Source: Nemertoderma westbladi
Lineage: Eukaryota; Animalia; Xenacoelomorpha
NCBI GenBank assembly: GCA_032718475.1
Contig: JAUCBJ010008627.1
Coordinates: forward strand, 1 to 64,000
Direction: 5' to 3'
DNA length: 64,000 nucleotides
Position numbers and translations under genes: made by a program. This document shows, one piece after another, positions 3,048 through 64,000 of this stretch. Below the pieces are notes generated by a model that saw only the letters and a list, made by a program, of their open reading frames with translations, ran no database searches and was not told the origin of the DNA. Within the stretch, counting starts at the first letter, position 1. The number at the start of each line of letters is the position of its first letter.

Positions 3048-3684
3048 CTATAAGTAACCGGTCTCTCTAACCTTCAGTATATCAAGAAGATTGGGGTTTT
3101 ATGATTATTTATCGATATTCTCCAAATATAACAACATATCCATCAACTTCTAACAATTAATAACCGACAGTAAATAGCAGTAAAATAATGTGGTGAAAGG
3201 TATGTATAGTATGATATGATATGATAGGACTTGATAACAGTTATACGTTTCTATAATCAAAGCCGTTCTAATGTTTGGCTAAAGTCTGAAACACCGAATA
3301 ATTCCAAAGCCGATGTTCTGGGCTCAGGAAAAAAGGTAAACAAAGACCATAATGCATTGCGCGATCTTCCGTAGGCTTCTGTGCAAGATAAAATGAAAAT
3401 CGCTCTGATTGGTCGAGTGAGCCGAACAAAGAAAGCCAAAAAGCTCCACATCGACATATCAGCTGATAGATGTCGTCATCTGAACTACACTGTATTAAGA
3501 GTATTTTGGCGTATTGCGGCATAAAATGGCTTGTTATGTCCGCTAAAGTACACATACAGAAAAATGGCTTTTTATGTCCACTAAAACACCTACACAGTAA
3601 GAAAACGGCTTTTTATGTCCGCTAAAACACCTACAGAGTACTTTGCGGGGAAAATGACTAGCTAGATCCGCAAAAGCCTTTACA
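3048..3684 (-). repeat. 3' LTR of copy 1, distal ~540 bp missing
   Basis: Matches 20841-21477 with about 8 substitutions counted by eye. Starts TGTAAAGG on the minus strand and abuts the RTE fragment at 3047. Confidence 0.92.
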
Positions 3685-3692: not shown

Positions 3693-3970
3693 AGAAAATG
3701 GGATTTAATTCTATAAAATATAAAAAATCACAGTTTCTAAAATATAAAAATACTCTAAACAGTTAGTCTTTCTTGCGCGGACGGCGTTTACGCAGTTTTT
3801 TGAGGCTAGCAAGAGTCCTTTTCTCTTTGGGGCGAGCCACTTTACTAGGAGGGCTATAACTCCTGGGTGAAGGGTGCAATACAATTGCATCGGAAGGTTT
3901 AGGATTACGGTCGGTGTATCCGCCGGTCGAGGTACCTGGTTGATCGATATCAACCTCAGTGGAGCGAGGT

Positions 3971-6900
3971 CTAACGGCCTTTAGAGCGCGTTTTAGGACA
4001 GCAGCTCCTTTCTGGTCCCTGACGAGTCGTCTGAACGATAGCGGTAGGTGGACCGTGAGTGGTGAGAAACTTCCTCGGTTTAATGGTTCTTTCCAACTCG
4101 CGTTCTCGGGCTCGATATTCGTAGGGCCGTCGATGTACTTCCTGTAACTCTGGATGCGAGTTGATGAACAAATCGCCATACTCCGGGTCTTGACGGATGA
4201 AGTTGATCAAGTTGTATGAATTAATATCGTTAGGATTGATGTTCCTGAGATATTTACGAACAAATTTGGTGGAAATACACTCACCAACACGCTTCATTAG
4301 TTCGTAACTCGGTGTGCGTGATTTTTGTTCAACAGACGCGAATAGATAAGGATGGAACGCATAAACTCCTTCGTAGGCGCGTCCAGGGTAATAGCGATGG
4401 CGTGACTCACAATGTAAATCCGCATTCGCTTCCCAAGCTCGGATGTAGCGCAGGGTAATCATTTCATCTACGCTTTCCAGATCGCGGTTAAAAGGGCAAT
4501 CAAAACTGGCATGTCCTTTAAGTTGACAATGATGGCATTGAGTCATAAATTGGGGGCAGACTGCGAAAATGTGCAAGTTATTGAGTCTGCAATACGCACA
4601 ATAGATCTCCATCGCCGGTTGTTCGTGGAAATAGGAGCAGGGTACGTCTGAGTCCATGGGGGTGAGATGATCTCTCGATGCGCATAATTGGCAACGTTTT
4701 CGAGAAACATAGTTGGCGTGCCGATAATCGTATGCGGTGAGACATTGTGGACCTTGATACCATTCCAAGACGTAGTCGTTGTCGCTGCTCCGGGGCGCTG
4801 TAGGCTGAATCTCCTCGGATTCTAAGCATATTGGTTCGTCTTCCAATTGCATAGCTGAGGTAGGTGCGGCTGTCTCCTCAAGCGAACCCACTGTCTGAAC
4901 TTCCACGATAGAATAACCCGTGGGTATTCGAGGTCTTTGTATAACAGAGGAATGTAAGTTCTGTAGACAAACGTCCTTGAAAATGGCGAATCCAGCGCTG
5001 TCTAACTTCTCAGCAGCTGAGTCTCTTAGGCTGAGCTTAGTCAGAGCGCGGTCCTTGAACTGACTATCAACGTTACGGAACGGAGTCAGAAAGCGCCTGA
5101 AGCATTCGAAGCGGATGAATTTATTGTGTTCATCTAGCTTGGCGAGTTTGGTTCCAAGTATTAAGGGATGGGCGCGTATAGTACGACTGCACACATCGGC
5201 TAGCCAACCGGCAAGTGCGGCGTTTTCAAAGATCGTGTATATAGCTAAGGAGGGACGAAGTGGAACACTCATGAAGCTATACACGACACCAGGTGCGGTC
5301 AATGGTCCATCAAAGTATAATCGAGAATAATGATCTCCATATACTTGTTGATAGTTGATAGGGTTTCCGACCTTGAAATTCCATCCGTATTCTTGAAAGG
5401 CAAGATGTCCGATGGAAGTTCGTTGTACTTTAGTAATGCCGCTGGGTGTATTGGCATACATAGTGCGGAAGAAACCTCGGCCTTCTGCCCAGGGAGCAAT
5501 CAGCTGAGTATCTACGAAAGGATATGGGATGTTCTCCATGTTCCGAAAGTCGTTTTGGAGATCTCCATAAACAGCTGAGCCGATTTTAAGGATTCTTTCG
5601 TTAAACAACATCTCGAGCACGGGCTGGGGTAACATCGATCCATCGATACCCATGGCCGGTTTGCGCTCGGTGTCAGTGACGTAACGCTGCGCGAGTTCGA
5701 ATTGTCCATGTCGGAGTTTCTTTTGTATCTCGGTGAGGGTCTCAAAAGAATAATCAATCACATCGGAACACGCTCGAGTAAATACGTGGGTAGAACCAGC
5801 TAGTCCTCGTATATGTATCATGCGCGTAGTTCCCAGTTCTCCAACCGGAACGCTACCTTCGTTATCGTAAGTGACAACTCCATACATCTCTATAACGTTA
5901 AGAGTTTCGTTCCACTCTTTAGTGGCGTTTTCTAGGGTCATTCCCACTGGATGCCACAAGGTGGCGCATTCGCTAGCGTTAGGTAGATCTCTATACTTCA
6001 AATACTGTGTAGTATATGTTTCTACATCTCCATATCGTTGTATTCTCTCCTCCTCGAATAACACGTCGAGATTCCAGTGGACTAATCGAGTTTTGATAAA
6101 TCCATCGAGAGTATACGGAGGTATTATATCTTTCTCTATTCTGGAAACATTATAGGGTTTTCGGAATGAGTTTACTTTCACTAACTGATCCAGATGTTTC
6201 TGCAGTTGTTCGAGTTCGACAAGATCGAGAGGATTTATTAGTGGTAGAAACCTTAGACTATGTGTAGGATCTTCCGGTTTTACCATGTGATATTGAATTA
6301 GATTGACATAATAAGGGTGATCTTTGATCCCATAAAACGAGTTCGGTAAAGGTCTAGCGCGTATGTTGACCTCGTGTACCATACGACGGACAAGATCAGC
6401 TCTATTGTCCGGAGGTTCTACGAGTATACCATCAACACGAGCGGTCTCGATTGGCGGACGTTGCAACATAGGAGCGTCAGCGATAAGATCCCGAGACCTT
6501 AGGTTGATATCAACCGGTTGAAGTTGTGCCGTGGCGAAGAGTTTGTCTCCGAAATGGGGAACCATCGAAGGATGAATGATGGTTTTAGAATAGAGATCAG
6601 TCATAAGGATTTGAGCTTCTGGCTGGGCTAAAGCTGCTTCTTCTCTCTCATCCATTTCTATGTGTTTCTCCTCGAGCTGATTTTCCTCCGCTTGTCGTTG
6701 TAAATGCTCATCTAGGAACTCTTGTAGAGAATAGGTTCGTCCAAGTTCAATGTCTTCCTCGAGGTTCTGGATTTCTCGATCGAACTGGGGTAAAGCTAAT
6801 TCCTTCACTGCTTGGACTTGTTGCTGCAATTTGCGTTTCTCTAAACAATCGTAAGTTCCTTTTCCGATCTTCTGCCGAATAGCGTCTAACGCGTTTCGTA

Positions 6901-8017
6901 CAACGCTCTCCTCGACTTCGGTGACGGGTTGTATCGGGGTTAAACCGGGACGATTGTACGGGTTGAACGGCGATATTAGATGCCCGCGTCCCAATCCGGC
7001 TAGATAGGATGGGCGAATATCTAGCGAGCCCACTACCGGAATGCCACCGATTAATTGTTCGGGTAACACAAGATCTTTAAATAGTGAGTACAGTTCAGGG
7101 GGATCCGTTATACTATTAGGACCAAGCGTTTGAGGTCTCACTAAGGAATGAGGAGGTCTGACCGAGTATTCCGGAACTTTGATCATGGGTTTATTTAAGG
7201 ATTGTTTGAGTCGAGCGAGCGTAGGTGATACGTCGAACAGGTTTCGCTCGAAACTCCCATAAGTATATCGTGTAAAACTGTGTTTAGCGCAACGTCTCCG
7301 CGGATGTTTATGTCTTTCCGTTTGCTGATTGGGTCTAGGGCATTCGTCGCAGTAATACCAAAGACGCACGTCCTGCAGGGGAAACGCGGGTGATCGTTCT
7401 CCAGTTTTACAATATTCCTCCATCTGTTCGAAGCTATCTGGGACGACAGGTAGCGGTCGATCGGCGGTAAGATACATCATAGTGAAATAGAGTCGTTTGA
7501 GTTCTATCATAGGGTCATGATGTATACCTTGAGGATATCGAGTTTCTAGATTTTGTTGACTGGCAATATTGAGATATGTTTCTCTCAAGAATTCCAGATA
7601 ATTGTTGAAGTCACTGCGTTTATCCGGCTCTTCAACGTCTTCTCTTTCGAGTCGGTTTCGAATAGAATTCTCGTGTTCTATTCTCGGTTTATCGTTCCGA
7701 CTCCGCTGGGTATGATATTTAAATAAAACCATTTCCCTTTCGGTGTCAACATCGTCCGTATCGTGTAAATCGATAGGATGGCCAGTAGTTAAGAAGTCCA
7801 TATACGTACCGTTACGATGCGTATAGCGAGCGGTGAATTTTCTATAGTCCAATTCACGCGTAAGTTGCTCCTGGGACATCGGCGGTTCGATATAACGACC
7901 ATCGTCCTCCGTAGTAGTTGGACTAGCGTCGCCGCGTATCAAGCTATCAACAAACGCTTGTAAAGGTAGAGTATATCGCTCCCTAATACCAAGATCATCT
8001 TCTATCAACTCAGTCAT
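3971..8017 (-). CDS. Retrotransposon accessory protein: DEDD 3'-5' exonuclease-like domain (WRN/EXD2/Mut-7 type) plus three CCHC zinc knuckles; ancestral stop probably at 3763
   Basis: 1348-aa open frame. Exo motifs: VVTYDNEG (ExoI, D718/E720), LPQPVLEMLFNERILKIGSAVYGD (ExoII, D819), FVDTQ, SIGHLA and GPLTAPGVVYSFMS (ExoIII-like, Y913). Knuckles CX2CX4HX9C, CX2CX5HX4C and CX2CX4HX4C at aa ~1109-1174. No obvious signal peptide or transmembrane helix. Confidence 0.8.
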   Translation of the reverse strand: MTELIEDDLGIRERYTLPLQAFVDSLIRGDASPTTTEDDGRYIEPPMSQEQLTRELDYRKFTARYTHRNGTYMDFLTTGHPIDLHDTDDVDTEREMVLFKYHTQRSRNDKPRIEHENSIRNRLEREDVEEPDKRSDFNNYLEFLRETYLNIASQQNLETRYPQGIHHDPMIELKRLYFTMMYLTADRPLPVVPDSFEQMEEYCKTGERSPAFPLQDVRLWYYCDECPRPNQQTERHKHPRRRCAKHSFTRYTYGSFERNLFDVSPTLARLKQSLNKPMIKVPEYSVRPPHSLVRPQTLGPNSITDPPELYSLFKDLVLPEQLIGGIPVVGSLDIRPSYLAGLGRGHLISPFNPYNRPGLTPIQPVTEVEESVVRNALDAIRQKIGKGTYDCLEKRKLQQQVQAVKELALPQFDREIQNLEEDIELGRTYSLQEFLDEHLQRQAEENQLEEKHIEMDEREEAALAQPEAQILMTDLYSKTIIHPSMVPHFGDKLFATAQLQPVDINLRSRDLIADAPMLQRPPIETARVDGILVEPPDNRADLVRRMVHEVNIRARPLPNSFYGIKDHPYYVNLIQYHMVKPEDPTHSLRFLPLINPLDLVELEQLQKHLDQLVKVNSFRKPYNVSRIEKDIIPPYTLDGFIKTRLVHWNLDVLFEEERIQRYGDVETYTTQYLKYRDLPNASECATLWHPVGMTLENATKEWNETLNVIEMYGVVTYDNEGSVPVGELGTTRMIHIRGLAGSTHVFTRACSDVIDYSFETLTEIQKKLRHGQFELAQRYVTDTERKPAMGIDGSMLPQPVLEMLFNERILKIGSAVYGDLQNDFRNMENIPYPFVDTQLIAPWAEGRGFFRTMYANTPSGITKVQRTSIGHLAFQEYGWNFKVGNPINYQQVYGDHYSRLYFDGPLTAPGVVYSFMSVPLRPSLAIYTIFENAALAGWLADVCSRTIRAHPLILGTKLAKLDEHNKFIRFECFRRFLTPFRNVDSQFKDRALTKLSLRDSAAEKLDSAGFAIFKDVCLQNLHSSVIQRPRIPTGYSIVEVQTVGSLEETAAPTSAMQLEDEPICLESEEIQPTAPRSSDNDYVLEWYQGPQCLTAYDYRHANYVSRKRCQLCASRDHLTPMDSDVPCSYFHEQPAMEIYCAYCRLNNLHIFAVCPQFMTQCHHCQLKGHASFDCPFNRDLESVDEMITLRYIRAWEANADLHCESRHRYYPGRAYEGVYAFHPYLFASVEQKSRTPSYELMKRVGECISTKFVRKYLRNINPNDINSYNLINFIRQDPEYGDLFINSHPELQEVHRRPYEYRARERELERTIKPRKFLTTHGPPTAIVQTTRQGPERSCCPKTRSKGR

Positions 8018-9720
8018 AGCTACTATATGAGTTTATCAATATTATAATGAGTTTATAATTAGGCTAGCGGGCGTCGCTGCCTACCCCTCACGGCCCCCGG
8101 ACAGTGCAAGATCCTCAGCGCCGATGTACCGTCGTCGCTGTGTTTTTTGCCAACGTAGTAGCTACACAACGACAACGATAACCAGCGCGAGTCACTCCAC
8201 CGTCCATCCCAAGGGCTAAGATTTACTTCAGGTTCTTACTGCAGAGGTAGGGCTACTTTCACAATTGCGACTCGCTACTGTAAACACACTTTAGTAGTAA
8301 CATTCACCTATAAACGCACAAATTCCACACAACTGTCACGAATTGTACACATTAGGGCCATTTGTCCGTTAGTCAAGTGCCTTCCAGAAGGCCACGTTAT
8401 TATTATGTATCCTTGGATACTAGCAGTGTGCTATTTATTCCTTATGCTATTCAATGGGCAAGCTTTCTATTGTTCTTTTAACTCGCTTCTAATTCTAGCG
8501 TGGTTGTTGCTATGGTGACATTATGGAAAGCTAGCGGTAGAATTAGGGTAATTCCCATGCATACAGATCTGGGATGCTATTTAATAGTAATTCTTTAATT
8601 GTCAATATTCCTCTTTATACATGATTTTATGAATTTTATCGGCAATTGACTATATATTGGAGATTCTCGCACACTAATACACTTAATAGGGTGAATCTCC
8701 GCTCCCATGATTAATTAATTAATGGAATTTTGGGAATATTATAAATTGTATAAAATAACAATTTATCAAATTCATTAAAAGAGATGAATTTAAATTTATT
8801 CCCGTAAATTTTATTATTTATCCTTAAAACAGACATAATTTTATTCCAGAGCATGTCTGGGGACTAGGTTCCTTAATTCTAGGAAGTTTGTCCTTTTAAG
8901 AGTATCGGTAAGTGCTACGATATCTTAATAGACTAGAAATTTAAAGGATCTAAAATTTTACAGATTTTAATTCATAGATTTTCTAGAGTTAACTTGTAAG
9001 TGGTTACTCTATTGTATTTATTTGACAGATTTTATAAATATTAATAGTTAATATTTAAGATGGGCACCGGTTTATTCCAGAACAGGTCTGGGGACGTTAA
9101 CCATTGATTCTAGAATTTTGTCTTTCAAGTATATCGGTGGGTGCCGCGATATCTTAATCGACTAGAATTACAGATGGTCAAAGGGTTTAACAGATTTATT
9201 TTGCGTTTTACGCTACTGTTAAAGGGACATCACGCTACTATATGTATTATTTAATATACGGTATGAGAGCAATATTGCAAGAAGCAATGTCAGTGAGAAG
9301 AGGCAAGTCGTTTCCAAGGTCTACCCAGAGCTTGGTTTAGCCGAGACACGAGGATCTGAATTTTGCATTCCTAATACTCTACTTACCAATAATACTTGAA
9401 TATAGTAGGAGCTTTATTGTACTTTAATAAGTACGGACATCTCATCTTACTGTAGTCACGTATTTATAATATGATATGGACAGTAAGGAAAGAGAAAAAG
9501 AGTTATTTCTCACCGTCGCACTAAATATATATTATATAAGTAATTAAGTAATAAGACTAATATATATTGCACTAATCTACTAGATAATCGCTAAAATAAC
9601 ATTCTACTAAATAAAATTAAAGAAAACGATTATAATAAAAGTACATAATAGTACATACAGAAATATAAAAATGATAAAAATATATGAAATAATATAGTCA
9701 CACACCCACTCCAGACGCTG

Positions 9721-10803
9721 TCACGTTGGGGAGTCCCTGGATGTTGGTTGGATTAGGGAGGTGGTCGTGGGAAGAGTATCTTGCCTTCCATAGTTTCCGG
9801 AGAGTTCTCTGTCTCTTTCCAGTAAACATAAACGACCAACTGGGCGATTGAGCTGCTGCGTCTCGAAGACAATTCCCGGTTTCTTAAAGTTACGTCGCAT
9901 GACGACGAGTTCTACCGATCGCACCAAACCATCATCTGAGATATGAGTCTCGATGATACGACCTGTCTGCCGCAGCTTACGTGGAAGATCTGACTCCACA
10001 ATAAGGACCATGTCTCCTGCGCTGACGTTTTCATGCTGCGCAAACCACTTAGTTCGAAGTTGTAGCGTAGGCAGATAATGTTTTTCGAAATGGTCAGCGA
10101 AACGACGGGATAACAACTGCATAAGTTGCCAAGTTTGCCGGCAGTATTCGTCTCCGTCCATGATTTCTGATCGTGGGGGCATGGCTACAGGTTTCTTCAG
10201 TAGGAAGTGCGTGGGTGTTAGCGCTTCCAAGGAATCGGGACTCGATGAGACTGGCATAAGCGGTCTCTCGTTGAGATAGGCGGCGATTTCCTCCATTAAC
10301 GTCCACAAAAGTTCGTCGGTGAGATACGCGCGGCACGGCACTATAAAGTGAAATGCGGTCTTCACGCTCCTGATTAATCTCTCCCAACTTCCTCCCCACC
10401 AAGGGGCGTCGGCGGCGTTGAAGGTCCAGCTAGACGCTGTTACCCTTAGCTGATCGTCCACCTGTCTTTGGTTCCAATCTTTTACGTAAGCCTTGATTTC
10501 ATTGTTGGCACCAATGAAGTTCGTTCCCTTATCAGATCTCATCGTGTTACTAGTTCCAAAGCGAGCGATCTGTCGGCGTAAGCTCAATATGAAGCTATTG
10601 GTAGATAAATCGTTCACCATATCGAGATGGATAGCTCTACAAGTCATACAGACAAAGATGACACACCATCTCTTGACTATAGTCCTAGCACGATATACCT
10701 CAATAGGGCCAAATAAATCCACACCGGTATTAGTAAAGGGTGGTTCATAGAAGCTTACTCGTTCCCTAGGTAATTCTGCCTCTCGTTGTGGATTTCTCAA
10801 CAA
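9721..10803 (-). pseudogene. BEL/Pao integrase core and C-terminal domain; the HHCC zinc-finger region is missing
   Basis: The DDE triad is visible in TGVDLFGP, SDKGTNF and GSWERL. LTPTHFL and DGLVRSVEL...RPVGRLCLL are typical BEL C-terminal motifs. In frame with the upstream ORF across the stop at 10867. Confidence 0.92.
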
Positions 10804-10866
10804 CAGGAAATACTTATCGGAATCCTCATAGCATTGCAGGAGTCTCAGTATCTGCTTATTGGTTTC

Positions 10867-12510
10867 TTAATCCTCCTGGTAACTGATCTTCTCCTTCAGA
10901 AATCTGCCTGATATCTTGTATTTGGGAAGATCTTTAACAACATGTACCTGTACAGATGTCAGTGGAGCGGTATCACTAGTGGTCTTCGTCCTGGAGTAGT
11001 GATGATGAAAACATCGCTTTAAATATGTAATGGCCTTACAGAGCCGATTCCAGGAACTATAGTGATGTATCGCTCTCTGCAGGAGAGGTGAGAGTCCCTG
11101 CGAGACGTCTGGTGTTCCAGATTTCCAATCTCTCTCTCTGATTTCCACAACAGACTTATTTGTGGCTGGGGTTTTTGGATCCAAAGCGTCGTCTCCAGAA
11201 GTGTGTAGTACAGACAGATCTATCACGGGTTTAAATAACTTCGATTTACTCGCTCGGGTTTTAGGTTTGACTTTCTCCGCTCCCTTGGCTTGTCTAATCT
11301 CCGCCGTGGTAAGATGAGGAGGCCATTCATCCTCTTCTTTGCTTAGGAAGTCGGGTCCGCCTAACCAGTCTGGAGTATCTATCAGTTCTTGTGGAGTTGC
11401 TCCTCTGGAGGCGATGTCGGCTGGATTAATCGTTCCGGGGCAATGTCTCCATTGATCTATCTTCGTGCGACTATGTATAATGGCTACTCTGTTGGTAACG
11501 AAGACACTGAACTGACAGACTTCATTGGTTATATACTCCAACACGAGTAAAGCATCGGTCCAATAGACAGTTTTCTCCAGTGGATAGTCGATCTGTTCGG
11601 TTACATTCCGGCCGATGGCTGTAGCGTATAGAGCCGCTTTTAACTCCGCTCGAGGAACTTTCAACTTGTTGTTTATCAAGGCCTTAGAGGTAACCAAGGC
11701 GACCTTGATTCCATCCGGAGTTTCAACTCTCAGGTAGGCTACTATACCTATTCCCATATCGCTGGCGTCTCCAAACACATGGAGTTGATAGGAATACGTG
11801 GGGAGAACATGACCAAAATATGAACGGGAAATTATAAAGTTCTCGATGGATGGTAGAGAATCTTCCCATTTCATCCATTTCTTTAATAGTTCTCCTTTAA
11901 GTGGATCGTCCCATGAGTGATTTTCAAGCCACATTTGTTGTACTAAACTCCGAGCAATCAATATAACTGGGTTAATAAATCCCAATGGATCGAAATAAGT
12001 GCTCAGGATACTTAGACAAATCCGTTTAGTCCGAACTGGATTATCTCGCTGTTTTAGCTGGAAAAACAGGATATCTCCCTCCGTGTCCCATTTCAAACCA
12101 AGTGTCTTGGTTTCTGGAAGATCGTCCTTGATAAGGTCTAGGTCTTTAACTCCTCGGTCTTCTACCGGGATTGATTCCAGAAATTCACGGGAGTTGCTGG
12201 TGAATTTAGTTAATCGAAATCCACCTATTTTCAAGCACTCTACCGTTCCTTTGGCGACATCAATGGCTTCTTCCACCGATGGGAGGGACTTTAAATTGTC
12301 GTCCATGTATATATCCCGTTTGATGTTGTCGATAACCTCTTTGGAGAAGGCGTCCCGGTTGTCATCAGCAGTGGTACGCACTATTGAGCAGGCGTTTGAA
12401 GGGCTCGAGATGATCCCAAAAGCCTGGATGGTCATCCAGTACTCCACCGGTTTCTGGTTGAGGTCTCCTTCAGGCCACCACAGAAATCGTAGGCTGTCTC
12501 GATCCCTATC
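10867..12510 (-). pseudogene. BEL/Pao reverse transcriptase (C-terminal part) and RNase H
   Basis: RT motifs RDSLRFLWW, FGIISSP, IYMDD and KTLGLKW; RNase H motifs VFGDAS, PRAEL, YWTD and NPADIASRG. The N-terminal RT motifs are absent, replaced by foreign DNA. Confidence 0.93.
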
Positions 12511-13855
12511 CAGCCGCTTACGTCCTTCTGGGCTCCTCCCCGAGGCGCACCCACGAGGCGGACGCTTTTCCACCACCCTTGGGGCCAGTCCGACTCCGTT
12601 TTTATCAGACCGGGCCGGAGGGTAGCCCGATGCTTCCCGGATTCACTTTTCAATCCCCCGATCACACCGGCACAGCTCGTCGCATGTGTAGCCAGATGGT
12701 CGGCTACTGTCAACTTACTGTGGCCTGACTGTACATTGAGCCAACTCAGAGAGTCAACCGGCGGGTGGACCAGTCGATAGCGATCGAGCATCAAGGTCAC
12801 CCTTGAGCCAAACCGACGGTCTTGTCCCAAGTGGGCTTGCGCTACCCAACATGGAATATTGACACGTTTTCACCCGCCTCGCCGGCAGTATTGAGGGGAA
12901 GTCGGTTCCGCAAACAATACTGACTAGCTCGAAAGCTAGGAACAAGTAACCACTTACCAGTCATTGTACACGTGTACTCAACAGATGTTCACGAAATCAA
13001 GTACACAATGGTAAACACAAAATCGGACACATACCATGCACACACAGAGGACATAATCGGGAAAGACAAATCGGTGACAAAATCAGAGGGGACAAATTGT
13101 ATCGACTGATAAAAGAGTCGAGAGTACCTTATTTTGCCGTCAGGGCAAAATAACTTTGTGTGCACAAAGTATGCTGGGGCGCAGTAAAGATATGGTCCTA
13201 CTAATACCAGCGGCGTCTAGACCAACCGGCAAGGGTTCCCATACTCACTCGCAGTGGCCATACATACACTCACGTATACCACGTACCCACAGCAACAGAA
13301 AGCTCAAGCAAACTACCACTGATCGTCCATACACAAACCACAGATTCCAAAGTATCGTTCACTCGGACCACACTACAACACCACCCCCTCCTTGAAGCGG
13401 ATATTCCAGGTGCTACCTCCATTCCAATAGTAGTACCAACAGAATCATCAGAATCCTGCCCATTCCGATGCAACACCTCCATTCCAATAGTGCTACCCTG
13501 GGAAAAGACACGTTTCGGCGGCCGATCGGAGACAGCAAAGAGTCTGGTCAACTCATACATACCAAACATAGACCTACCACATAGACCACAGATCACACTA
13601 AGCCACCACCCCTACTGTGTACAGGACTGGCAGTACGGCAACAGGCCGACTAGACGGTACCACGGCACCATGTTGATTCATGGTTCGCAAGACACGAGGG
13701 CCTTCAGTATCTCCCTTGCACTTACGGGACGATTTAACGTGCCCCCAGACACTCACGAGTCCGCCGCCGCCTGTTGTCGACACCCCTATAGAGACCTCAC
13801 CTCTTTGGGTATCGACTTGTCCCGCTGGATGAATGAGGTGACATAGGTTCACTTG
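12511..13855. other. Foreign ~1.35-kb segment replacing the N-terminal part of RT
   Basis: BEL similarity stops after ...LLTENETWQ and resumes at DRDRDSLRFLWW. The segment has no pol motifs. Boundaries are approximate. Confidence 0.65.
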
Positions 13856-16800
13856 GTTTTGCCAAGTTTCATTTTCTGTAAGGAGGTCGATGGTATTCTC
13901 CTCGTCGAAGAGTTGGTGGATATCGTCATTATCTGAGGAGTATGGTGTTCCCTCAGGTGGGTCGTCTCCCTCACTGGTCTCATCTTCCCATTCACTCACC
14001 TGGTAGACTCGTTCTTTGGGTAGCCTTTCCATGAGAGTTCTACGGGAAGGTCCAGTAAAGTACCAACCTACTCTAGTTCTTCCCGCATAGGATTGCAGTG
14101 GTTGTGGTTGAGCAGGCCGTTTTTCCGATGTCTCAAGCGCCTCATGCGCATTTTGGCCGATGAGTATTTGCACTCCAGGGTAATCTGTGTTGAATCTAGG
14201 TATCTCATGCTGTTGGGTGAAGTCGTCCTCATCCCAGTTATAAGGTTCCACTTGGCTGGTAGCGAAGTTCTTTATCGCCACCATTTTTACTGACCTTATA
14301 CTGTGTTCTCCTAGTTCATCCTGGGGGGTGGACAACGCGCCTACATAATAGTCTGTAGTTACTGTAGATTTCCAAACCTGCATAATTCCTGACATGTTCA
14401 ACTTAGTTCGGAACTTGGGTTGTCCAGCAAAGATGTCTTCGGCTAGTTCTTTGTCGATGAATGTTCCTGTGCTGCCGGAGTCAAGGAGGGCGTTCACTAT
14501 ATAGCTCTTTTCTGACCCGTGGACTCTCAACTGCACTACGGGAAATTCTCGGATTCCTACGTTGGAAGTTGGTGCTTTCCAAGATGGTTGTCGGTCAGGA
14601 GTAGTTAGGGGGAGCTCACTATCAATTTCCTTCTCATACGTAAGTGCTCGATACACTGCGGTATTTATTAGGTAACAGGATTCGTTTTCGTTGGAGAATT
14701 CATCCGTATAGAATCCTTCCATCTCAGAACTTTGGTCAGTGTCGTTCACATCACTGAATTGGACATGTAGTTCGGACTCACTTACCTGACTCGGGTTGTT
14801 TCTTTCGAATTCGGTGTGCAGCAAGATATGATGTTTCGCGCCGCACTTAGCACACCTCGCGTCAGAGTAACAGGTTCACCGTTGGTGTCCTTGTCTGAGG
14901 CAATTATAACACAATCGCTTATCCCACATGACTTCGCGTCTATCCTTTAAGGATTTCTTTAGGAATTCATCACACACACTTAAACGGTGGGGCCCGTCGC
15001 ACAATGCACATTTTGGTTTGATGTTACTTACTTTACCTTGGGTAATGTTGTGCACACTCGTTCTTTCCTCGGGCTTTCTTCCACGAACTCTCTTAGGAGA
15101 CGTAGGAGGAGTTTTTGTTACCTGTTCTCTCCTGTCACTAATTCGAGACTTAAATTTACTTACGTCTTTAGTTGCTTTGTTGACATAGTAAGATCTTGCG
15201 GTGTCTTTCCCATTGTCCTCCTCTTGAGAGGCCTGGCTTTCACCGTCGTCTGTATAACACACTGGTGTTACCTTTCTCCTAGAAACGGTTTTCTCACTTA
15301 CCTTATTTTCCGGTGTCTTCTCTCTGGACTGCTTTAGGAGCTGTAATTTTACCTCTCCATCTAAGAATGACATGAGATCAGCCATGGTAGGGTCTCGTTG
15401 TTGTTGTTCCATCATATATAACACTTTCTTATCCCAGCGTGTACCAACTCCACCCTTTGGCAAAGTAGATGCTACGGCTCCAATAACCATAGCACTCTGA
15501 TATTCATGAGACTTACCTAGCCAATCTAATTGTCTACAGATCTCCTGAATCTCATCGGAAAACTCTATAATCCCGCTGCTAATGAACTTTCGGGGCGCTA
15601 CCAATTTTGCATACAAATACCTAGCTATGTTATTCCTATTACCATACCTGATGTTTAAGGTATTCCATACTTGGCTTAATCCATCTGGATGTCCAATAAA
15701 CTTTAACGCCATTAACTTGGGAGATCCTTCCAAGCACTCGATGAGGAATCTAAGTTTCTCTCCGTTAGATAGCACAGAGTTCTGTATGTTATCTTTGTAA
15801 TATTCATTAAAAGGTAACCATTTCATCTCATCTCCATTGAACTTGACGATCTCTCCCACATTTACCGCTTGACGGGCTTCGGTTCTAGCCATTTGATGCG
15901 TAAAACTTTCTTGGGCCATCGTATTATTTAATATCGAGTTATCGGTATATAAATTTCTCGGATTATTATCAGGTCTATATGGAATATCATTGTCAACAGG
16001 TTTATAATTACCCTTAATAGGGTTTACTATAGGAGTTTCTACTTCACTAGCAGTGTAGATGCGTGTAGGCTCCACACCTTGCGTATGAAATACTTCAGAC
16101 CTAACAGGTTGACACATTGTTACAGGGTGTGGTGGTATACCCTTTTGTATATTTACTAATTTATCGCGTTCTAACGCGATATTCTGCTGCACTTCTTGCA
16201 ACTCTAACCTACTTTCCCTTACTGTTCCCTTGAATTGTTGAACAGTCTCCTGCATCTGCCCGAGCAGGAGATTCATCCCCCGCCGCCCCTCATCCACCCA
16301 CTCGACCGCCGAAGCGGGAGCCGCCAACACAGTAGCGGGTAGACAAGGGACAACGGGCGACAAATCGTTGATATTTCGCTCGGAGTCCAGTACAGGAACT
16401 GTCTCAGGGGCTGTTCTGCTGGGCACAGGTAGTTTAGTGCTGTGCAAAGGGAATTTAGAGTTGGGTTCTGGAAGTACAGGGATCTCTATCACAGAGGGGG
16501 TAGCTTCGAGAACAGGCCTAATTATTTCAGGCTCATCTACTATAGTAGGGAGTCTTTTTACTCTAATAATTTGGTCTGTGGGTTCTGTACTACCTAAGTC
16601 CGTGCTAGCTAGTTGCCTTCTCACAGCTGGGGGCAAATCAGGCAATTTCTGACGGTGGGGCATTCTTCTACGCCTGCTAGGACGAGATCTATTTCCTCCG
16701 TCTTCAGGATCTGTTGTATCGCCTTCATCCGATGATGTAAAACCCTGTCGCTTAGGGGTGGATCGACTTATCATCTGCCACTGAGTAGCTGTTCTCTGTT

Positions 16801-18391
16801 TATCTATGTAGTCTTGCTTCTCTTGCAGATTTTCCAACTCTAGTTGGATGGTCTCTTCAGACGCTCTCCGTTCTGCTTCTGCCACTGCTATCTTTCTTTC
16901 CGCTTATGCCGCTTTTCTTTCCGCTTCTGCCGCTGCCACTGCCGCTTTTCTTTCCACTTCTGCCGCTGCCACTGCCGCTTTTCTTTCCACTTCTGCCGCT
17001 TTTCTTTCCGCTTCTGCCGCTTTTCTTTCCGCTTCTGCCGCTGCCTCTGCCACTTTTCTTTCCACTTCTGCCGCTTTTCTTTCCACTTCTGCCGCTTTTC
17101 TTTCCGCTTCTGCCGCTTTTCTTTCCGCTTCTGCCGCTGCCACTGCCGCTTTTCTTTCCACTTCTGCCGCTTTTCTTTCCGCTTCTGCCTCTGCCGCTGC
17201 CGCTGCTGCTGTCTTTCTGTCTTCTATACGTTTTTTCTTTACTTGTTCTTCTTGGACCCTAGCGATGCGGCTGCTTTCATCAAATTTAGCTTGGTTCGCA
17301 GCTAACATTTCCGCATCTAATGCGTCCAACACAAACTTGGCTCCTTCACTATTAGGGCGAAGTCCAGCCAGCCGTCTCCTCAACTCTTTGTCTCCTACAA
17401 ATCGTTGATAGTCCGACAGATAGATGTCAATAGCGTCCTTCTTCTGAGGTTTCTCTAATGTAACCTCGCTTTCCACCTGAGAAAAGGCAGCGTCTGTTGA
17501 TTCTCCATGGGTCGAGCGCTCATTTAGCTGAATTTTCCATTGGGTCGTTCCTTGAACCTTGAGACTCACCCGTTGGAACCAAGTCTTGACGGCAACTTGC
17601 AACGACGTGTCTTGGGTTCTCTTCGAAGCTTCCTCAAAGGCTGATAGTAGTAGTCTGATTCTTAGGATTCTTACTCGAACTTGATAAAGCAGCTCTCCCT
17701 GCTCTTGAGGTCCTTGATGTTGTTGAAACAGTTGTTCCTCTAATCGCTCCAAAGAGCTGAAGAATCCCTGTACATATCCCGCTGCCGACCTCTTCCACAC
17801 AGCTGGATCACTAGTGTCTTTTGTCACTCCCATCCTGTATAAGTCCTCCCAGGCAGCTTCCGATAAGTTAAACGGGAGTCCGGGTCCGGGAAAGTTCCAT
17901 TGCGTCTCGACAATAGACTTCAGTTCCTCCCTTGTGTATCCCGCATAACTGTCCTTGGTCGATCGCTTACTTCTCGCCCAATCGATTTGGTGTTCCTCCA
18001 CTGCAATCAATACCCTAGTGAGTACGGCTGCAGGAAGAATGAGAAGTGGATCCGAATAAACCGCATCTGCCATCCTTGCTCCGCGCTCGGGTGTCAACTC
18101 TACAGTATCTGAACTACTGGAGCTATCGGGCCGCTGAGAAATAAGTTCTCGGCTCGGGTGTTGCTGCTGTTTAACAGCTGCTTCTTGGTCCCGCTTGACT
18201 TGAGCCCAAGTGCCTATGATAGACCTACGGTGTTTGACTAGCCTAGGGTCTGATACTACTACTGGAGGGATGACCTTTCTTACAGTAGGAGGGGAGTTGA
18301 ACTTCGGTCTCAAATGTTCCGCACTCCTATCTGGATCACAGATGGTTGTATCTAGGAGACTGTCTGACAGGTTTTGCTTTGTGTCAGACAT
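13856..18391 (-). pseudogene. BEL/Pao gag and aspartic protease, one frame interrupted by two premature stops (16904 and 14876)
   Basis: The three listed ORFs share one frame. Gag motifs KFNGDEMKWLPF...EKLRFLIECLEG; zinc knuckles CALCDGPHRLSVC, CYNCLRQGHQR*TC and CAKCGAKHHILLH; protease ALLDSGSTGTFI. Confidence 0.92.
16865..17212 (-). repeat. Coding tandem repeat in gag (21/30-nt units encoding AEAERKA / AVAAAEVERKA)
   Basis: Repeated ttctgccgcttttctttccrc units. One unit has GAA>TAA, creating the stop at 16904. Confidence 0.9.
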
Positions 18392-20302: not shown

Positions 20303-21477
20303 TGTTCGCGCTTTTAGACCTTTAGCAGTTTAACCTGCCAATTTTAGGTGTCTTCTAGGTTATAAATCAACTTTAGCCTATAACAAGTATTTGATACACA
20401 TAAAGCTACATTAGCCGAAGCCAGCCTATGCGCAACCATTCACCCACAGTTAAGGGAGACTGGATTCGGATGCTCTGACCTTATTGCGGTGTAGACTTGT
20501 ACTATTCGATTGATCGTTAATATATAATCTCTGACAAATATTATTCACTTTTGGGAAATATTAACAGTTCCTTTAGGACGTGGCGCTCTAAGTATGTAAA
20601 CAGAGTTATGACTTACACTAAACACAATGGTATGGCTAATGATTTTCGTATAAAGCGCATTCTTTAGGAAATGCTTTGTTATCTATCACATTCATGCACA
20701 CTACCGCACACTGCTGCACACTGATCTGCCGACCTTCACTAAATTTGATCATATATAAGGAGAACAGCAACTGACACATGTAGGGTCTATGAAATAGCAT
20801 TCAATTCACTCCAAAACCACTATAATGTAAGTCGCAATTGCTATATGTAACCGGTCTCTCTAACCTTCAGTATATCAAGAAGATTGGGGTTTTATGATTA
20901 TTTATCGATATTCTCCAAATATAACAACATATCCATCAACTTCTAACAATTAATAACCGACAGTAAATAGCAGTAAAATAATGCGGTGAAAGGTATGTAT
21001 AGTATGATATGATATGATAGGACTTGATAACAGTTATACGTTTCTATAATCAAAGCCGTTCTAATGTTTGGCTAAAGTCTGAAACACCGAATAATTCCAA
21101 AGCCGATATTCTGGGCTCAGGAAAAAAGGTAAACAAAGACCATAATGCATTGCGCGATCTTCCGTAGGCTTCTGTGCAAGATAAAATGAAAATCGCTCTG
21201 ATTGGTCGAGTGAGCCGAACAAAGAAAGCCAAAAAGCTCCACATCAACATATCAGCTGATAGATGTCGTCATCTGAACTACACTGTATTAAGAGTATTTT
21301 GGCATATTGCGGCATAAAATGGCTTGTTATGTCCGCTAAAGTACACATACAGAAAAATGGCTTTTTATGTCCACTAAAACACCTACACAGTAAGAAAACG
21401 GCTTTTTATGTCCGTTAAAACACCTAAAGAGTACTTTGCGGGGAAAATGACTAGTTATATCCGCAAAAGCCTTTACA
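20303..21477 (-). repeat. Full-length 5' LTR of copy 1 (1175 bp, TG...CA)
   Basis: Both ends are fixed by comparison with 58024-59195 and 3048-3684. Three ~40-bp tandem repeats lie near the U3 end (about 21316-21432). Confidence 0.93.
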
Positions 21478-58023: not shown

Positions 58024-59195
58024 TGTTCGCGCTTTTAGACCTTTAGCAGTTTAACCTGCCAAATTTAGGTGTCTTCTAGGTTATAAATCGACTTTAGCCT
58101 ATAACAAGTATTTGATACACATAAAGCTACATTAGCCGAAGCCAGCCTATGCGCGATCATTCACCCACGGTTAAGGGAGACTGGATTCGGATGCTCTGAC
58201 CTTATTGCGGTGTAGACCTACTGTATTATTCGATTGATCGTTACTACAATATCTCTGACAAATATTATTCACTTTCGGGAAATATTAACAGTTCCTTTAG
58301 GACGTGGTGCTCTAAGTATGTAAACAGAGTTATGACTTACACTAAACACAACGGGATGGCTAATGATTTACGTATAAAGCGCATTCTTTAGGAAATGCTT
58401 TGTTATCTATCACACTCATGCACACTACCGCACACTGCTGCACACTGATCTGCCGACCTTCACTAATTTTAATCATATATAAGGAGAACAGCAACTGACA
58501 CATGTAGGGTCTATGAAATAGCATTCAATTCACTCCAAAACCACTATAATGTAAGTCGCAATTGCTATATGTAACCGGTCTCTCTAACCTTTAGTATATC
58601 AAGAAGATTGGGGTTTTATGATTATTTATCGATATTCTCCAAATATAGCAATATTCCATCAACTGATAACAATTAATAACCGACAGTAAATAGCAGTAAA
58701 ATAATGCGGTGAAAGATTGTATGGTATGATATGGGCTGATATGATAGGATAACAGTTATACGTTTCTATGATCAAAGCCGTTCTAATGTTTTGCTAAAGT
58801 CTGAAACACAGAATAATTCCACAGCCGATGTTCTGGGCTCAGGAAAAAAGGTAAACAAAGACCATAATGCATTGCACGATTTCGCGGAGGCTTCTGTGCA
58901 AATAAAATGAAAATCACTCTGATTGGTCGAGCCGAACAAAGAACAAAGAAAAGCTCTACGTGGACATATCAGCTGATAGATGTCGTCATCTGAACTACAC
59001 TGTATCAAGAGTATTTTGGCGTATTGCGGCATAAAATCGCTAGTTATGTCCGCTAAAGTACACATACAGAAAAAATGGCTTTTTATGTCCACTAAAACAC
59101 CTACACAGTAAGAAAACGGCTTTTTATGTCCGCTAAAACGCCTACAGAGTACTTTGCGGGGAAAATGACTAGCTAGATCCGCAAAAGCCTTTACA
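58024..59195 (-). repeat. Complete 3' LTR of copy 2 (1172 bp)
   Basis: Reads TGTTCGCG...CCTTTACA on the plus strand and is homologous to 20303-21477. Confidence 0.93.
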
Positions 59196-59273
59196 CCGCT
59201 CCCAGAAAATGGGATTTAATTCTATAAAATATAAAAAATCACAGTTTCTAAAATATAAAAATACTCTAAACAG

Positions 59274-62200
59274 TTAGTCTTTCTTGCGAGGACGGCGTTT
59301 GCGCAGTTTTTTGAGGCTAGCAAGAGTCCTTTTCTCTTTGGGGCGAGCCACTTTACTAGGAGGGCTATAACTCCTGGGTGAAGGGTATAATACAATTGCA
59401 TCGGAAGGTTTAGGATTACGGTCGGTGTATCCGCCGGTCGAGGTACCTGATTAATCGATATCAACCTCAGTGGAGCGAGGTCTAATGGCCTTTAGAGCGC
59501 GTTTTAGGACAGCAGCTCCTACTGGTCCCTGACGAGTCGTCTGAACGATAGCGGTAGGTGGACCGTGAGTAGTGAGAAACTTCCTCGGTTTAATGGTTCT
59601 TTCCAACTGGCGTTCTCGGGCTCGATATTCGTATGGCCGTCGATGTACTTCCTGTAACTCTGGATGCGAGTTGATAAACAAATCGCCATACTCCGGGTCT
59701 TGACGGATGAAGTTGATCAAGTTGTATGAATTAATATCATTAGGATTGATGTTCCTGAGATATTTACGAACAAATTTGGTGGAAATACACTCACCAACAC
59801 TCTTCATTAGTTCGTAACTCGGTGTGCGTGATTTTTGTTCAACAGACGCGAATAGATAAGGATGGAACGCATAAACTCCTTCGTAGGCGCGTCCAGGGTA
59901 ATAGCGATGGCGTGACTCACAGTGTAAATCCGCATTCGATTCCCAAGCTCGGATGTAGCGCAGGGTAATCATTTCATCTACGCTTTCCAGATCGCGGTTA
60001 AAAGGGCAATCAAAACTGGCATGTCCTTTAAGTTGACAATGATGGCATTGAGTCATAAATTGGGGGCAGACGGCGAAAATGTGCAAGTTATTGAGTCTGC
60101 AATACGCACAATAGATCTCCATCGCCGGTTGTTCGTGGAAATAGGAGCAGGGTACGTCTGAGTCCATGGGGGTGAGATGATCTCTCGATGCGCATAATCG
60201 GCAACGTTTTCGAGAAACATAGTTGGCGTGTCGATAATCGTATGCAGTGAGACATTGTGGACCTTGATACCATTCTAAAACGTAGTCGTTGTCGCTGCTC
60301 CGAGGTGCTATAGGCTGAATCTCCTCGGATTCTAAGCATATTGGTTCGTCTTCCAATTGCATAGCTGAGGTAGGTGCGGCTGTCTCCTCAAGCGAACCCA
60401 CTGTCTGAACTTCCACGATAGAATAACCCGTGGGTATTCGAGGTCTTTGTATAACAGAGGAATGTAAGTTCTGTATACAAACGTCTTTGAAAATGGCGAA
60501 TCCAGCGCTGTCTAACTTCTCAGCTGCTGAGTCTCTTAGGCTGAGCTTAGTCAGAGCGCGGTCCTTGAACTGACTATCAACGTTACGGAACGGAGTCAGA
60601 AAGCGCCTGAAACATTCAAAGCGGATGAATTTATTGTGTTCATCTAGCTTGGCGAGTTTGGTTCCAAGTATTAAGGGATGGGCGCGTATAGTACGACTGC
60701 ACACATCGGCTAGCCAACCGGCAAGTGCGGTGTTTTCAAAGATCGTGTATATAGCTAAGGAGGGACGAAGTGGAACACTCATAAAGCTATACACGACGCC
60801 AGGTGCGGTCAATGGTCCGTCAAAGTATAATCGAGAATAATGATCTCCATACACTTGTTGATAGTTGATAGGATTTCCGACCTTGAAATTCCATCCGTAT
60901 TCTTGAAAGGCAAGATGTCCGATGGAAGTTCGTTGTACTTTAGTAATGCCGCTGGGTGTATTGGCATACATAGTGCGGAAGAAACCTCGGCCTTCTGCCC
61001 AGGGAGCAATCAGCTGAGTATCTACGAAAGGATATGGGATATTCTCCATGTTCCTAAAGTCGTTATGGAGATCTCCATAAACAGCTGAGCCGATTTTAAG
61101 GATTCTTTCGTTAAACAACATCTCGAGCACGGGCTGGGGTAACATTGATCCATCGATACCCATGGCCGGTTTGCGCTCGGTGTCAGTGACGTAACGCTGC
61201 GCGAGTTCGAATTGTCCATGTCGGAGTTTCTTTTGTATCTCGTTGAGGGTCTCAAAAGAATAATCAATCACATCGGAACACGCTCGAGTAAATACGTGGG
61301 TAGAACCAGCTAGTCCTCGTATATGTATCATGCGCGTAGTTCCCAGTTCTCCAACCGGAACGCTACCTTCGTTATCGGAAGTGACAACTCCATACATCTC
61401 GATAACGTTAAGAGTTTCGTTCCACTCCTTTGTGGCGTTTTCTAAAGTCATTCCCACTGGATGCCACAAGGTGGCGCATTCGATAGCATTAGGTAGATCT
61501 CTATACTTCAAATACTGTGTAGTATATGTTTCTACATCTCCATATCGTTGTATTCTTTCCTCCTCGAATAACATGTCGAGATTCCAGTGGACTAATCGAG
61601 TTTTGATAAATCCATCGAGATTATACGGAGGTATTGTATCTTTCTCTATTCTGGAAACATTATAGGGTTTTCGGAATGAGTTTACTTTCACTAACTGATC
61701 CAGATGTTTCTGCAGTTGTTCGAGTTCGACAAGATCGAGAGGATTTATTAGTGGTAGAAACCTTAGACTATGTGTAGGATCTTCCGGTTTTACCATGTGA
61801 TATTGAATTAGATTGACATAATAAGGGTGATCTTTGATCCCATAAAACGAGTTCGGTAAAGGTCTAGCGCGTATGTTGACCTCGTGTACCATACGACGGA
61901 CAAGATCAGCTCTATTGTCCGGAGGTTCTACGAGTATACCATCAACACGAGCGGTCTCGATTGGCGGACGTTGCAACATAGGAGCGTCAGCGATAAGATC
62001 CCGAGACCTTAGGTTGATATCAACCGGTTGAAGTTGTGCCGTGGCGAAGAGTTTGTCTCCGAAATGGGGAACCATCGAAGGATGAATGATGGTTTTAGAA
62101 TAGAGATCAGTCATAAGGATTTGAGCTTCTGGCTGGGCTAAAGCTGCTTCTTCTCTCTCATCCATTTCTATGTGTTTCTCCTCGAGCTGATTTTCCTCCG

Positions 62201-63527
62201 CTTGTCGTTGTAAATGCTCATCTAGGAACTCTTGTAGAGAATAGGTTCGTCCAAGTTCAATGTCTTCCTCGAGGTTCTGGATTTCTCGATCGAACTGGGG
62301 TAAAGCTAATTCCTTCACTGCTTGGACTTGTTGCTGCAATTTGCGTTTCTCTAGACAATCGTAAGTTCCTTTCCCGATCTTCTGCCGAATAGCGTCTAAC
62401 GCGTTTCGTACAAAACTCTCCTCGACTTCGGTGACGGGTTGCATCGGGGTTAAACCGGGACGATTGTACGGGTTGAATGGCGATATTAGATGCCCGCGTC
62501 CCAATCCGGCTAGGTAGGATGGGCGAATATCTAGCGAGCCCACTACCGGAGTGCCACCGATTAATTGTTCGGGTAACACAAGATCTTTAAATAGCGAGTA
62601 CAGTTCAGGGGGATCCGTTATATTATTAGGATCAAGCGTTTGAGATCTCACTAAGGAATGAGGAGGTCTGACCGAGTATTCCGGAACTCTGATCATGGGT
62701 TTCTTTAAGGATCATTTGAGTCGAGCGAGCGTAGGTGGTACGTCGAACAGGTTTCGCTCGAAACTTCCATAAGTATATCGTGTAAAACTGTGTTTAGCGC
62801 AACGTCTCCGTGGATGTTTATGTCTTTCCGTTTGCTGATTGGGTCTAGGGCATTCATCGCAGTAATACCAAAGACGCACGTCCTGCAGGGGAAACGCGGG
62901 TGATCGTTCTCCAGTTTTACAATATTCCTCCATCTGTTCGAAGCTATCTGGGACGACAGGTAGCGGTCGATCGGCGGTAAGATACATCATAGTGAAATAG
63001 AGCCGTTTGAGTTCTATCATAGGGTCATGATGTATACCTTGAGGATATCGAGTTTCTAGATTTTGTTGACTGGCAATATTGAGATATGTTTCTCTCAAAA
63101 ATTCCAGATAATCATTGAAGTCGCTGCGTTTATCCGGCTCTTCAACATCTTCTCTTTCGAGTCGGTTCCGAATATAATTCTCGTGTTCTATTCTCGGTTT
63201 ATCGTTCCGACTCCGCTGGGTATGATATTTAAATAAAACCATTTCCCTTTCGGTGTCTACATCGTCCGTATCGTGTAAATCGATAGGATGGCTGGTAGTT
63301 AAGAAGTCCATATACGTACCATTACGATGCGTATAGCGAGCGGTGAATTTTCTATAGTCCAATTCACGCGTAAGTTGCTCCTGGGACATTGGCGGTTCGA
63401 TATAACGACCATCGTCCTCCGTAGTAGTTGGACTAGCGTCGCCGCGTATCAAGCTATCAACAAACGCTTGTAAAGGTAGAGTATATCGCTCCCTGATACC
63501 AAGATCATCTTCTATCAACTCAGTCAT
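59274..63527 (-). pseudogene. Accessory exonuclease-like/zinc-knuckle ORF of copy 2, with premature stops at 62712 and 59451
   Basis: Near-identical to the copy-1 protein. Two CAA codons of copy 1 read TGA (62712) and TAA (59451) here. Confidence 0.88.
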
Positions 63528-64000
63528 AGCTGGTATATGAGTTTATTAATATTATAATGAGTTTATAATTAGGCTAGCGGGCGTCGCTGCCTAACCATCT
63601 CGGCCCCTGGACAGTGCAAGATCCTCAGCGCCGATGTACCGTCGTCGCTGTGTTTTTCGCCAATGTAGTAGCTACACAACGACAACGATAACCGGCACAA
63701 GTCACTCCACTGTCCGTCCCAAAGGCTTAGATTTACTTCAGGTTCTTACTGCAGAGTTAGGGCTACTTTCACAATTGCGACTCGATACTGTAAACACACT
63801 TTAGTAGTAACATTCACCTATAAACGCACAAATTCCACACAACTGTCACAAATTGTACACATTCGGGCCATTTGTCCGTTAGTCAAGTGCCTTCCAGAAT
63901 GCCACGTTATTATTATGTATCCTTGGATACTAGCAGTGTACTATTTATTCCCTATGCTATTCAATGGGGCAAGCTTTCTATTGTTCTTTTTACTCGCTTC

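Follow-up and report, generated by a model that had tools for sequence, protein, structure and literature searches.

What would a BEL/Pao retrotransposon do with a large third gene, when gag-pol suffices for ordinary elements of this kind (PMC8742986)? The question is raised by a 64,000-nucleotide stretch of Nemertoderma westbladi DNA (assembly GCA_032718475.1, contig JAUCBJ010008627.1, positions 1 to 64,000, forward strand), hereafter the window, which contains one nearly whole long terminal repeat (LTR) element and the 3' third of a second copy, both on the minus strand. Judged by its domains, the first (copy 1) is a BEL/Pao LTR retrotransposon of 18.4 kb, and between its integrase and its 3' LTR lies the gene in question, open reading frame 3 (ORF3). 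Here, we find that ORF3 is a real accessory gene under selection, and that it very probably encodes a DEDDy-type exonuclease fold, followed by zinc knuckles. Our preferred but tentative account, to which we give somewhat less than even weight, is that its product is a predicted 3'-5' RNA exonuclease with knuckles, blunting host RNA-based silencing.

ORF3 is an accessory gene under purifying selection

The earlier note on this DNA, made from the letters alone, had described a BEL/Pao element carrying, in both copies, a separate non-envelope ORF of about 1400 amino acids (aa) that lay between integrase and 3' LTR and ran to 3763. The family assignment is borne out by DUF1759, Peptidase_A17 and DUF5641. 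The placement holds in full for copy 1, where pol stops at 9721 and the LTR begins at 3684, and on the 3' LTR side for copy 2; the linkage to integrase is visible in one of the two copies because the pol of copy 2 lies beyond the window. The frame is indeed large (1348 codons), but in copy 1 it stops at 3971, and a one-base length difference between the copies near 4010 puts the basic tail in another frame. Copy 2 matches copy 1 from 58565 to the window edge (97.1% over 5446 columns, covering 3048-8489 of copy 1), and its ORF3 adjoins a full 3' LTR and has premature stops at codon 272 and near 59451. Because neither copy is whole and both are broken near the 3' end, the product of about 1400 aa is one that we infer.

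A comparison of substitution rates among copies, suggested in the same note, reveals purifying selection. Over codons 1-1323 the copies differ by 51 synonymous and 28 non-synonymous changes, giving proportions per site of 0.054 (pS) and 0.009 (pN) and a pN/pS of 0.17 (Fisher p=6e-15), while the upstream non-coding DNA differs at 21 of 421 sites, the same level as pS. The ratio is 0.06 in aa 1-260 (p=2e-7), 0.12 in the exonuclease region (aa 681-960), 0.06 in aa 961-1100 and 0.20 in the knuckles and C terminus (aa 1101-1322). Since both copies have decayed after insertion, these values likely understate the constraint in active lineages. Separately, synonymous divergence from copy 2 falls to 0.010 in aa 401-680 (5978-6817), against 0.04-0.10 elsewhere in ORF3, and may mark recombination between family lineages.

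An env-like gene was rejected, in keeping with the non-envelope label: the highest 19-residue hydropathy is 1.35, so that no transmembrane stretch or anchor is seen, and no glycoprotein match was found in Pfam or PDB. An independent element was likewise rejected, since ORF3 has no termini of its own, and a search for terminal repeats bounding it found none. This bears on the idea that ORF3 is a passenger of no use to the retrotransposon, either a host gene it captured or another element nested within it, which we consider very improbable. Pol linkage is seen directly in only one of the two copies, and the genomic context was read for one of the three distant relatives described below, which leaves this idea some room; the gene is, on the other hand, intronless, sits at the same site by the 3' LTR in both copies and is under purifying selection among element copies, contigs from all four sequencing runs span all 30 bins of the element, and no close cellular relative occurs among 1.84 billion protein representatives.

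The sequencing runs also point to deleted forms. A joint skipping 4843-7648, that is, most of ORF3, was found in two of the four runs, and contigs of several runs join across 11459-13920 and 9850-11270, deleting parts of the reverse transcriptase (RT) or integrase. It seems that non-autonomous deleted forms of the family exist. Contig depth is not a copy number, and the lower depth over the middle of ORF3 was not taken as a count.

Zinc knuckles and distant relatives

As had been claimed, three clustered CCHC motifs occupy aa 1109-1174, with the spacings C1109-x2-C-x4-H-x9-C1127, C1140-x2-C-x5-H-x4-C1154 and C1161-x2-C-x4-H-x4-C1174. Pfam zf-CCHC_3 scores them at E=2e-4, below its cut-off, and the family profile (alignment A1) matches retroviral nucleocapsids, with HIV-1 nucleocapsid at E=1.4e-5.

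When aa 680-1256 were searched exhaustively against the 1.84 billion representatives, four matches came back, one of which, the acidic repeat protein P0003, was dropped as a low-complexity match. In the remaining three, P0002, P0004 and P0005 (648, 575 and 633 aa; 16-23% identity over the alignment), an exonuclease is likewise followed by a linker, knuckles and a conserved C-terminal module, while the 680-residue N-terminal part occurs in none of them. For P0002 and P0004, the exonuclease and the knuckles each give a match to ORF3 on their own. The complete D-E-D-D site and the Tyr are present in P0004, and P0002 reads D-E-D-E, like the favoured register of ORF3 (see below).

The contigs that encode P0002 and P0004 are up to 9.4 and 11.5 kb long; P0005 is the relative whose genomic context was read (L001, 124-3685). 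Its gene has a duplicated knuckle-plus-module unit, 585 bases apart, and 3' of the gene its contig of 3685 bases carries a purine tract, TG at 2073, CA at 3158-3159, TGG at 3162 and an ORF start at 3390. This order reads like ORF3, LTR, primer site and gag of a permuted LTR element, a tentative assignment in that the motifs are short and no pol is on the contig.

Other searches added little. Word-seeded protein searches gave 0 of 4235 candidates with ORF3 aa 690-1250 and 0 of 4448 with alignment A1, an insensitive search that did not return its own members; with P0004, only itself came back among 7995. Locus scans of viral contigs with P0004, P0002, the integrase, the C-terminal half of ORF3 and Escherichia coli RNase D confirmed no locus, and scans of genome contigs with the C-terminal half of ORF3 and P0005 found none. 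Metagenome contigs gave no locus for P0004 and one for P0005, and tblastn was uninformative both for P0004 in phages and for P0002 in plasmids.

The predicted exonuclease domain

The predicted DEDDy fold of aa ~700-945, which would place this region with the RNase D/WRN/EXD2 exonucleases, is supported by sequence and language-model evidence. The ExoI pair D718-x-E720 and the LP..L..L...ILKIG.....D819 stretch are found where the earlier note had put them, and D718, E720 and D819 are spaced as in E. coli RNase D, in line with the family pattern of an ExoI D-x-E on a strand and an ExoII Asp at K+8. Of the note's WRN/Mut-7-like DEDD exonuclease, the DEDDy-type domain stands; the WRN/Mut-7 subgroup is one of several DEDDy subgroups that would fit, the weak matches being to EXD2 and RNase D. 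The NCBIfam RNase D model scores E=0.005, and a profile of the domain with its three relatives matches a profile of 13 RNase D/NrnC/PolA-type exonucleases at E=4.3e-5, in an alignment that keeps ExoI, ExoII, a PxxDTQ motif and ExoIII in order; none of 40 column shuffles reached the profile score (38.5, against at most 18.5). With a hidden Markov model (HMM) of the reference exonucleases, ORF3 scored above 200 of 200 shuffles, as did P0002 and, narrowly, P0004. In the ESM Atlas, 25 of 30 matches are PF01612 clusters (best 0.92). Across 177,635 PDB sequences, the sole match of the domain profile is human EXD2, at a non-significant E=0.84.

ExoIII, which the earlier note did not cover, departs from the canonical form. 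Its Asp, present in all 13 references, is replaced in ORF3, so the domain is a DEDDy derivative rather than a canonical member. Two registers fit the PL-x6-Y-x3-acid pattern, Y913/S917 and Y927/E931. P0002 alone supports the Glu931 register (21 vs -1), itself reading Y-x3-E-N, and the Y927/E931 stretch is a long helix in both of the low-confidence models described below. We therefore favor Glu931, as far as these alignments can tell. In the proposed mechanism, D718, E720, D819 and E931 would form a two-metal site, and the chances that this site keeps some activity appear to us evenly balanced.

Several observations weigh against the exonuclease reading or the function built on it. Each single fold match is weak, even where several tests agree: no Pfam model matches aa 680-1040, the HH probability of the match to the 13 references is 69%, the top ESM Atlas match (0.93) is an unnamed cluster, and the shared-feature counts there (155-157) stay under the mark of 170. 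Two AlphaFold models from four-row alignments reached predicted local distance difference test (pLDDT) values of 32.7 and 30.1, and Foldseek with both gave no match at E<=0.001. Besides the loss of the ExoIII Asp, the two ExoIII registers tie against the 13 references (0.5 vs -0.4) and against P0004 (4 vs 4). P0005 has lost the ExoI E and has no exonuclease HMM score, so the family tolerates a dead site. The pN/pS values of 0.63 in aa 261-400 and 0.45 in aa 401-680 (five changes) are not significant, and among the sequencing runs recorded as RNA, none listed contains the ORF3 stretch. Finally, in rotifers no clear relation emerged between the presence of DEDDy ORFs and copy number, and the authors were doubtful of a role in silencing (PMC5408684).

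Some of these points would suit a dead or nearly dead nuclease fold kept for binding, like EXD1 or Maelstrom, that acts as decoy or scaffold for RNA or for a host silencing or export factor. Both proteins are described as inactive DEDD derivatives (PMC5408684), and Cer1 encodes CERV, an accessory protein that acts in RNA export (PMC10309623). The change of the ExoIII Asp to Glu or Ser, the two knuckle modules that P0005 carries in spite of its decayed site, and the fact that half of the ORF3 protein is non-enzymatic and partly conserved all agree with such a role. Against it, the two copies retain D718, E720 and D819, P0002 and P0004 do so at an identity near 25%, and P0004 has all four acids and the Tyr. 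We regard the decoy or scaffold as unlikely.

The N-terminal part

Scans of the N-terminal 680 residues covered Pfam, NCBIfam, PHROGs, PDB sequences and the window, and PHROGs gave matches at E>0.05 only. The strongly conserved aa 1-260 contain a Cys/His cluster, C223-x2-C226...H236,H238...C243-x2-H246, which is possibly a fourth zinc site. The N terminus is acidic, and aa ~395-470, acidic by composition, likely form a coiled coil. As a guess, these 680 residues would serve oligomerization and partner binding.

The host element and other features of the window

The coordinates are collected in Table 1. In copy 1, the Pao-type domains follow the order protease, RT, RNase H, then integrase; DUF1759, Peptidase_A17 and DUF5641 score above their cut-offs, and half of the RT is present; gag and pol are interrupted by stops. 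The LTR length of 1175 bp and the TG...CA ends fit the BEL/Pao range of 0.2-1.2 kb, and together with the three Cys-His motifs of the DUF1759 gag, these traits agree with Belpaoviridae (PMC8742986, PMC3118150). The two LTRs of copy 1 are 98.6% alike over 637 bp, and a short purine-rich tract precedes the 3' LTR. The N-terminal zinc finger of integrase was not seen in the copy 1 translation. The size of 18.4 kb exceeds the 4.2-10 kb of the ICTV profile of Belpaoviridae, a descriptive range and not a classification criterion (PMC8742986), and also the 15-kb upper bound of a 62-genome survey (PMC3118150). Also unlike the listed Belpaoviridae is a 1.9-kb leader upstream of gag, and no canonical primer site (tRNA-Arg or -Gly in this family) was seen in copy 1, where the first TGG lies 179 bases past the 5' LTR.

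Table 1. Features of the window; residue numbers refer to ORF3
Feature	Position	Strand	Remarks
3' LTR, copy 1	3048..3684	-	starts at 3684; cut after 637 bp at the start of a LINE fragment
Pro/Ser-rich stretch, then basic tail	3763..3970	-	like a nuclear localization signal by composition only; out of frame in copy 1
ORF3 (P0001)	3971..8017	-	ATG 8017; 1348 codons; between integrase and 3' LTR, sense to pol
Conserved post-knuckle module, aa ~1185-1235	4313..4465	-	E..A......R.R.......G; invariant A1 columns; in 3/3 distant relatives
Three CCHC-type zinc knuckles, aa 1109-1174	4496..4693	-	motif and profile evidence
Predicted DEDDy-type 3'-5' exonuclease domain, aa ~700-945	5183..5920	-	D718, E720, D819, with Y927/E931 (favored) or Y913/S917
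aa ~395-470	6608..6835	-	acidic by composition; weak coiled-coil-type PDB match, E=5
aa 1-260	7238..8017	-	strongly conserved; no Pfam or PDB match
AT-rich spacer	8018..9720	-	1703 bases; 34.5% GC; longest sense frame 58 codons
Integrase core and DUF5641	9721..10866	-	DUF5641 E=1.6e-17; stop at 9721
C-terminal RT (YMDD), RNase H, connection	10867..12642	-	Peptidase_A17 (Pao) E=4e-36
~1.2 kb, apparently foreign	12643..13820	.	occupies expected site of RT N-terminal half; bounds approximate
Protease region	13820..14836	-	LLDSGS motif; Asp_protease_2 E=0.004, below cut-off
gag	14837..18391	-	long N-terminal part with Ala/Glu/Lys repeat; DUF1759 E=3e-11; three Cys-His motifs; two in-frame stops
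5' LTR, copy 1	20303..21477	-	1175 bp; TG...CA; 94% vs 3' LTR of copy 2 over 1180 columns
Copy 2	58024..64000	-	full 3' LTR 58024-59195, ORF3 (ATG 63527), spacer start; remainder beyond the window

The primer site bears on whether ORF3 is an active exonuclease of the element's own cycle, which would trim the 3' end of the genomic RNA, the primer or the pre-integration cDNA while its knuckles serve as something like a second nucleocapsid. With no TGG within 178 bases of the 5' LTR, priming may be unusual, the ORF3 knuckles do resemble retroviral nucleocapsid, and selection over just 5% synonymous divergence suggests use in most cycles; the same idea has been proposed for the rotifer ORFs (PMC5408684). 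Yet the primer-site loss may be decay of copy 1, the gag brings three Cys-His motifs of its own, replication of ordinary BEL/Pao elements needs no ORF3, and ORF3-deleted forms exist. We think a role in the element's own cycle rather unlikely.

No RT-like frame was found in the apparently foreign segment at 12643-13820, where, in runs X1, X3 and X5, contig depth reaches its minimum within the element if the last LTR bin is set aside; it has weak 22-base inverted arms at 12767 and 13801 and matched no family. Relative to the usual DUF1759 start, the gag N terminus (16904-18391, minus strand) is extended by about 500 residues, and it includes an Ala/Glu/Lys tandem repeat (16867-17204) with a coiled-coil look. 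Two 68-base repeats lie 229 apart in the spacer (8893, 9122). Near each LTR start, in U3, there are three tandem repeats of 38-41 bases (3523-3640, 21316-21433 and 59033-59151), possibly enhancer repeats.

Beside the 5' LTR, a major facilitator superfamily (MFS) transporter frame at 22609-23496 (minus strand; MFS_1 E=2e-21), a long single exon, is probably a host gene. Non-LTR (LINE) reverse-transcriptase fragments lie at 43594-45408 (minus; a 604-codon open frame, RVT_1 E=5e-30), at 25773-27078 (plus) and at 2531-3045, the last abutting the cut 3' LTR of copy 1. A 153-codon frame at 23712-24173 (plus) resembles what we take to be the C-terminal endonuclease region of a non-LTR element. From 29800 to 54700, a 1.5-2.8-kb repeat of about 95% identity forms an array in which GC-rich (AGCCG)n / AATCGAGCCG satellites and units of 107 bases are interspersed; a large satellite and a rolling-circle-type element are two possible readings of it.

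Comparison with known systems

DEDDy cargo has a published precedent: in bdelloid rotifers, the LTR retrotransposons Juno and Vesta carry it as ORF3, and Athena/Terminon elements have it too (PMC5408684; cited in PMC5718144, PMC6431247 and PMC6338049). The earlier note had mentioned both rotifer and nematode cases: the rotifer ORFs are there, but a nematode one was not found among the literature matches listed, nor does the word nematode occur in PMC5408684. Like the gene described here, the Juno/Vesta ORF3 is a separate non-envelope ORF after pol with an RNase D-like DEDDy domain, an altered acidic motif and no transmembrane part. Unlike those elements, the host here is BEL/Pao, and the motif is given as DEED in rotifers and reads D-E-D-E or D-E-D-S here (PMC5408684). 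The rotifer ORF3s are said to lack coiled coils, and no knuckles are described for them (knuckles are in gag and pol only) (PMC5408684), whereas the present ORF3 has three of these, another module and an additional 680 residues, a distinction drawn from the rotifer descriptions and not from their sequences. No rotifer DEDDy ORF was among the matches that ORF3 gave in the 1.84 billion representatives.

For layout, the best working model is the trypanosome RNase D, TbRND (PDB 7C42/7C45; PMC7797062), in which a DEDDy domain is followed by several RNA-binding CCHC fingers and the zinc-finger domain raises RNA binding and cleavage. However, TbRND is a mitochondrial enzyme of the cell, about 350 aa long in the structures, with fingers near the nuclease (PMC7797062), whereas about 160 residues intervene here. 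The knuckle match of the family profile to TbRND is not significant (E=0.83), and the shared layout is likely convergent. With the EXD2/WRN/Mut-7/EXD1 group, ORF3 shares the LP..L..L....ILK.G.....D stretch, best aligned to human EXD2, but the other domains of that group are not seen and the ExoIII Asp is not kept.

Among Belpaoviridae, the third genes listed are env-like only (PMC8742986, PMC3118150), in contrast to the nuclease-type gene here. The excerpts of PMC3118150, PMC13524379, PMC2774666 and PMC10309623 do not mention an exonuclease ORF in BEL/Pao. None in BEL/Pao or nematode LTR elements appears in the literature matches listed, a scope that leaves out Repbase, GyDB, Dfam, subscription journals and supplements (e.g., the 7,861 elements of PMC3118150); within the same open literature, the exonuclease-knuckle-module layout was not found in print. 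The novelty of ORF3 thus lies in its host family, size and domain layout, the retroelement DEDDy cargo being already known.

Proposed function and implications

We favor a trans-acting anti-silencing role because gag-pol is enough for ordinary BEL/Pao elements, which makes the added nuclease an extra, and because ORF3-deleted forms occur; forms that skip ORF3 fit a product supplied in trans. ORF3 would be translated from its own subgenomic or spliced RNA, given the frameless 1.7 kb between it and pol, and the spacer likely carries promoter or splice signals for it. The knuckles would then grip RNA that is single-stranded and pass its 3' end on to the nuclease, as in TbRND, and the basic tail would direct the protein to act in the nucleus. 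Possible substrates are guide RNAs and the precursors of these, or further RNAs of the element that set off silencing, a proposal that we hold, too, with less than even confidence. A viral parallel is the Lassa virus exonuclease, whose digestion of double-stranded RNA has been linked to immune suppression (PMC3429428).

It is an open question whether any protein encoded by an animal retrotransposon counteracts small-RNA silencing, and the rotifer DEDDy ORF3s have apparently not been assayed since 2017, within the literature matches listed. With ORF3, DEDDy cargo is seen in BEL/Pao as well, joined to an RNA-binding module that has a well-characterized cellular analogue in TbRND; the element also shows that BEL/Pao can attain about 18 kb, more than the survey limits allowed for. 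Because the relative P0004 has a complete active site, activity and substrate are assayable on natural fragments. More speculatively, and with odds that we put well below those of the anti-silencing role itself, ORF3 may belong to an old and so far undescribed family of retroelement "nuclease plus knuckle" proteins, a one-chain mimic of the host Rrp6/Air-type or Mut-7-type RNA-trimming machinery, used by giant BEL/Pao and other LTR elements to destroy or shorten silencing small RNAs. Such a family would have been overlooked because the elements exceed the length limits of LTR surveys. If true, ORF3 would be an enzymatic suppressor of silencing by PIWI-interacting or small interfering RNAs (piRNA/siRNA) encoded by an animal retrotransposon.

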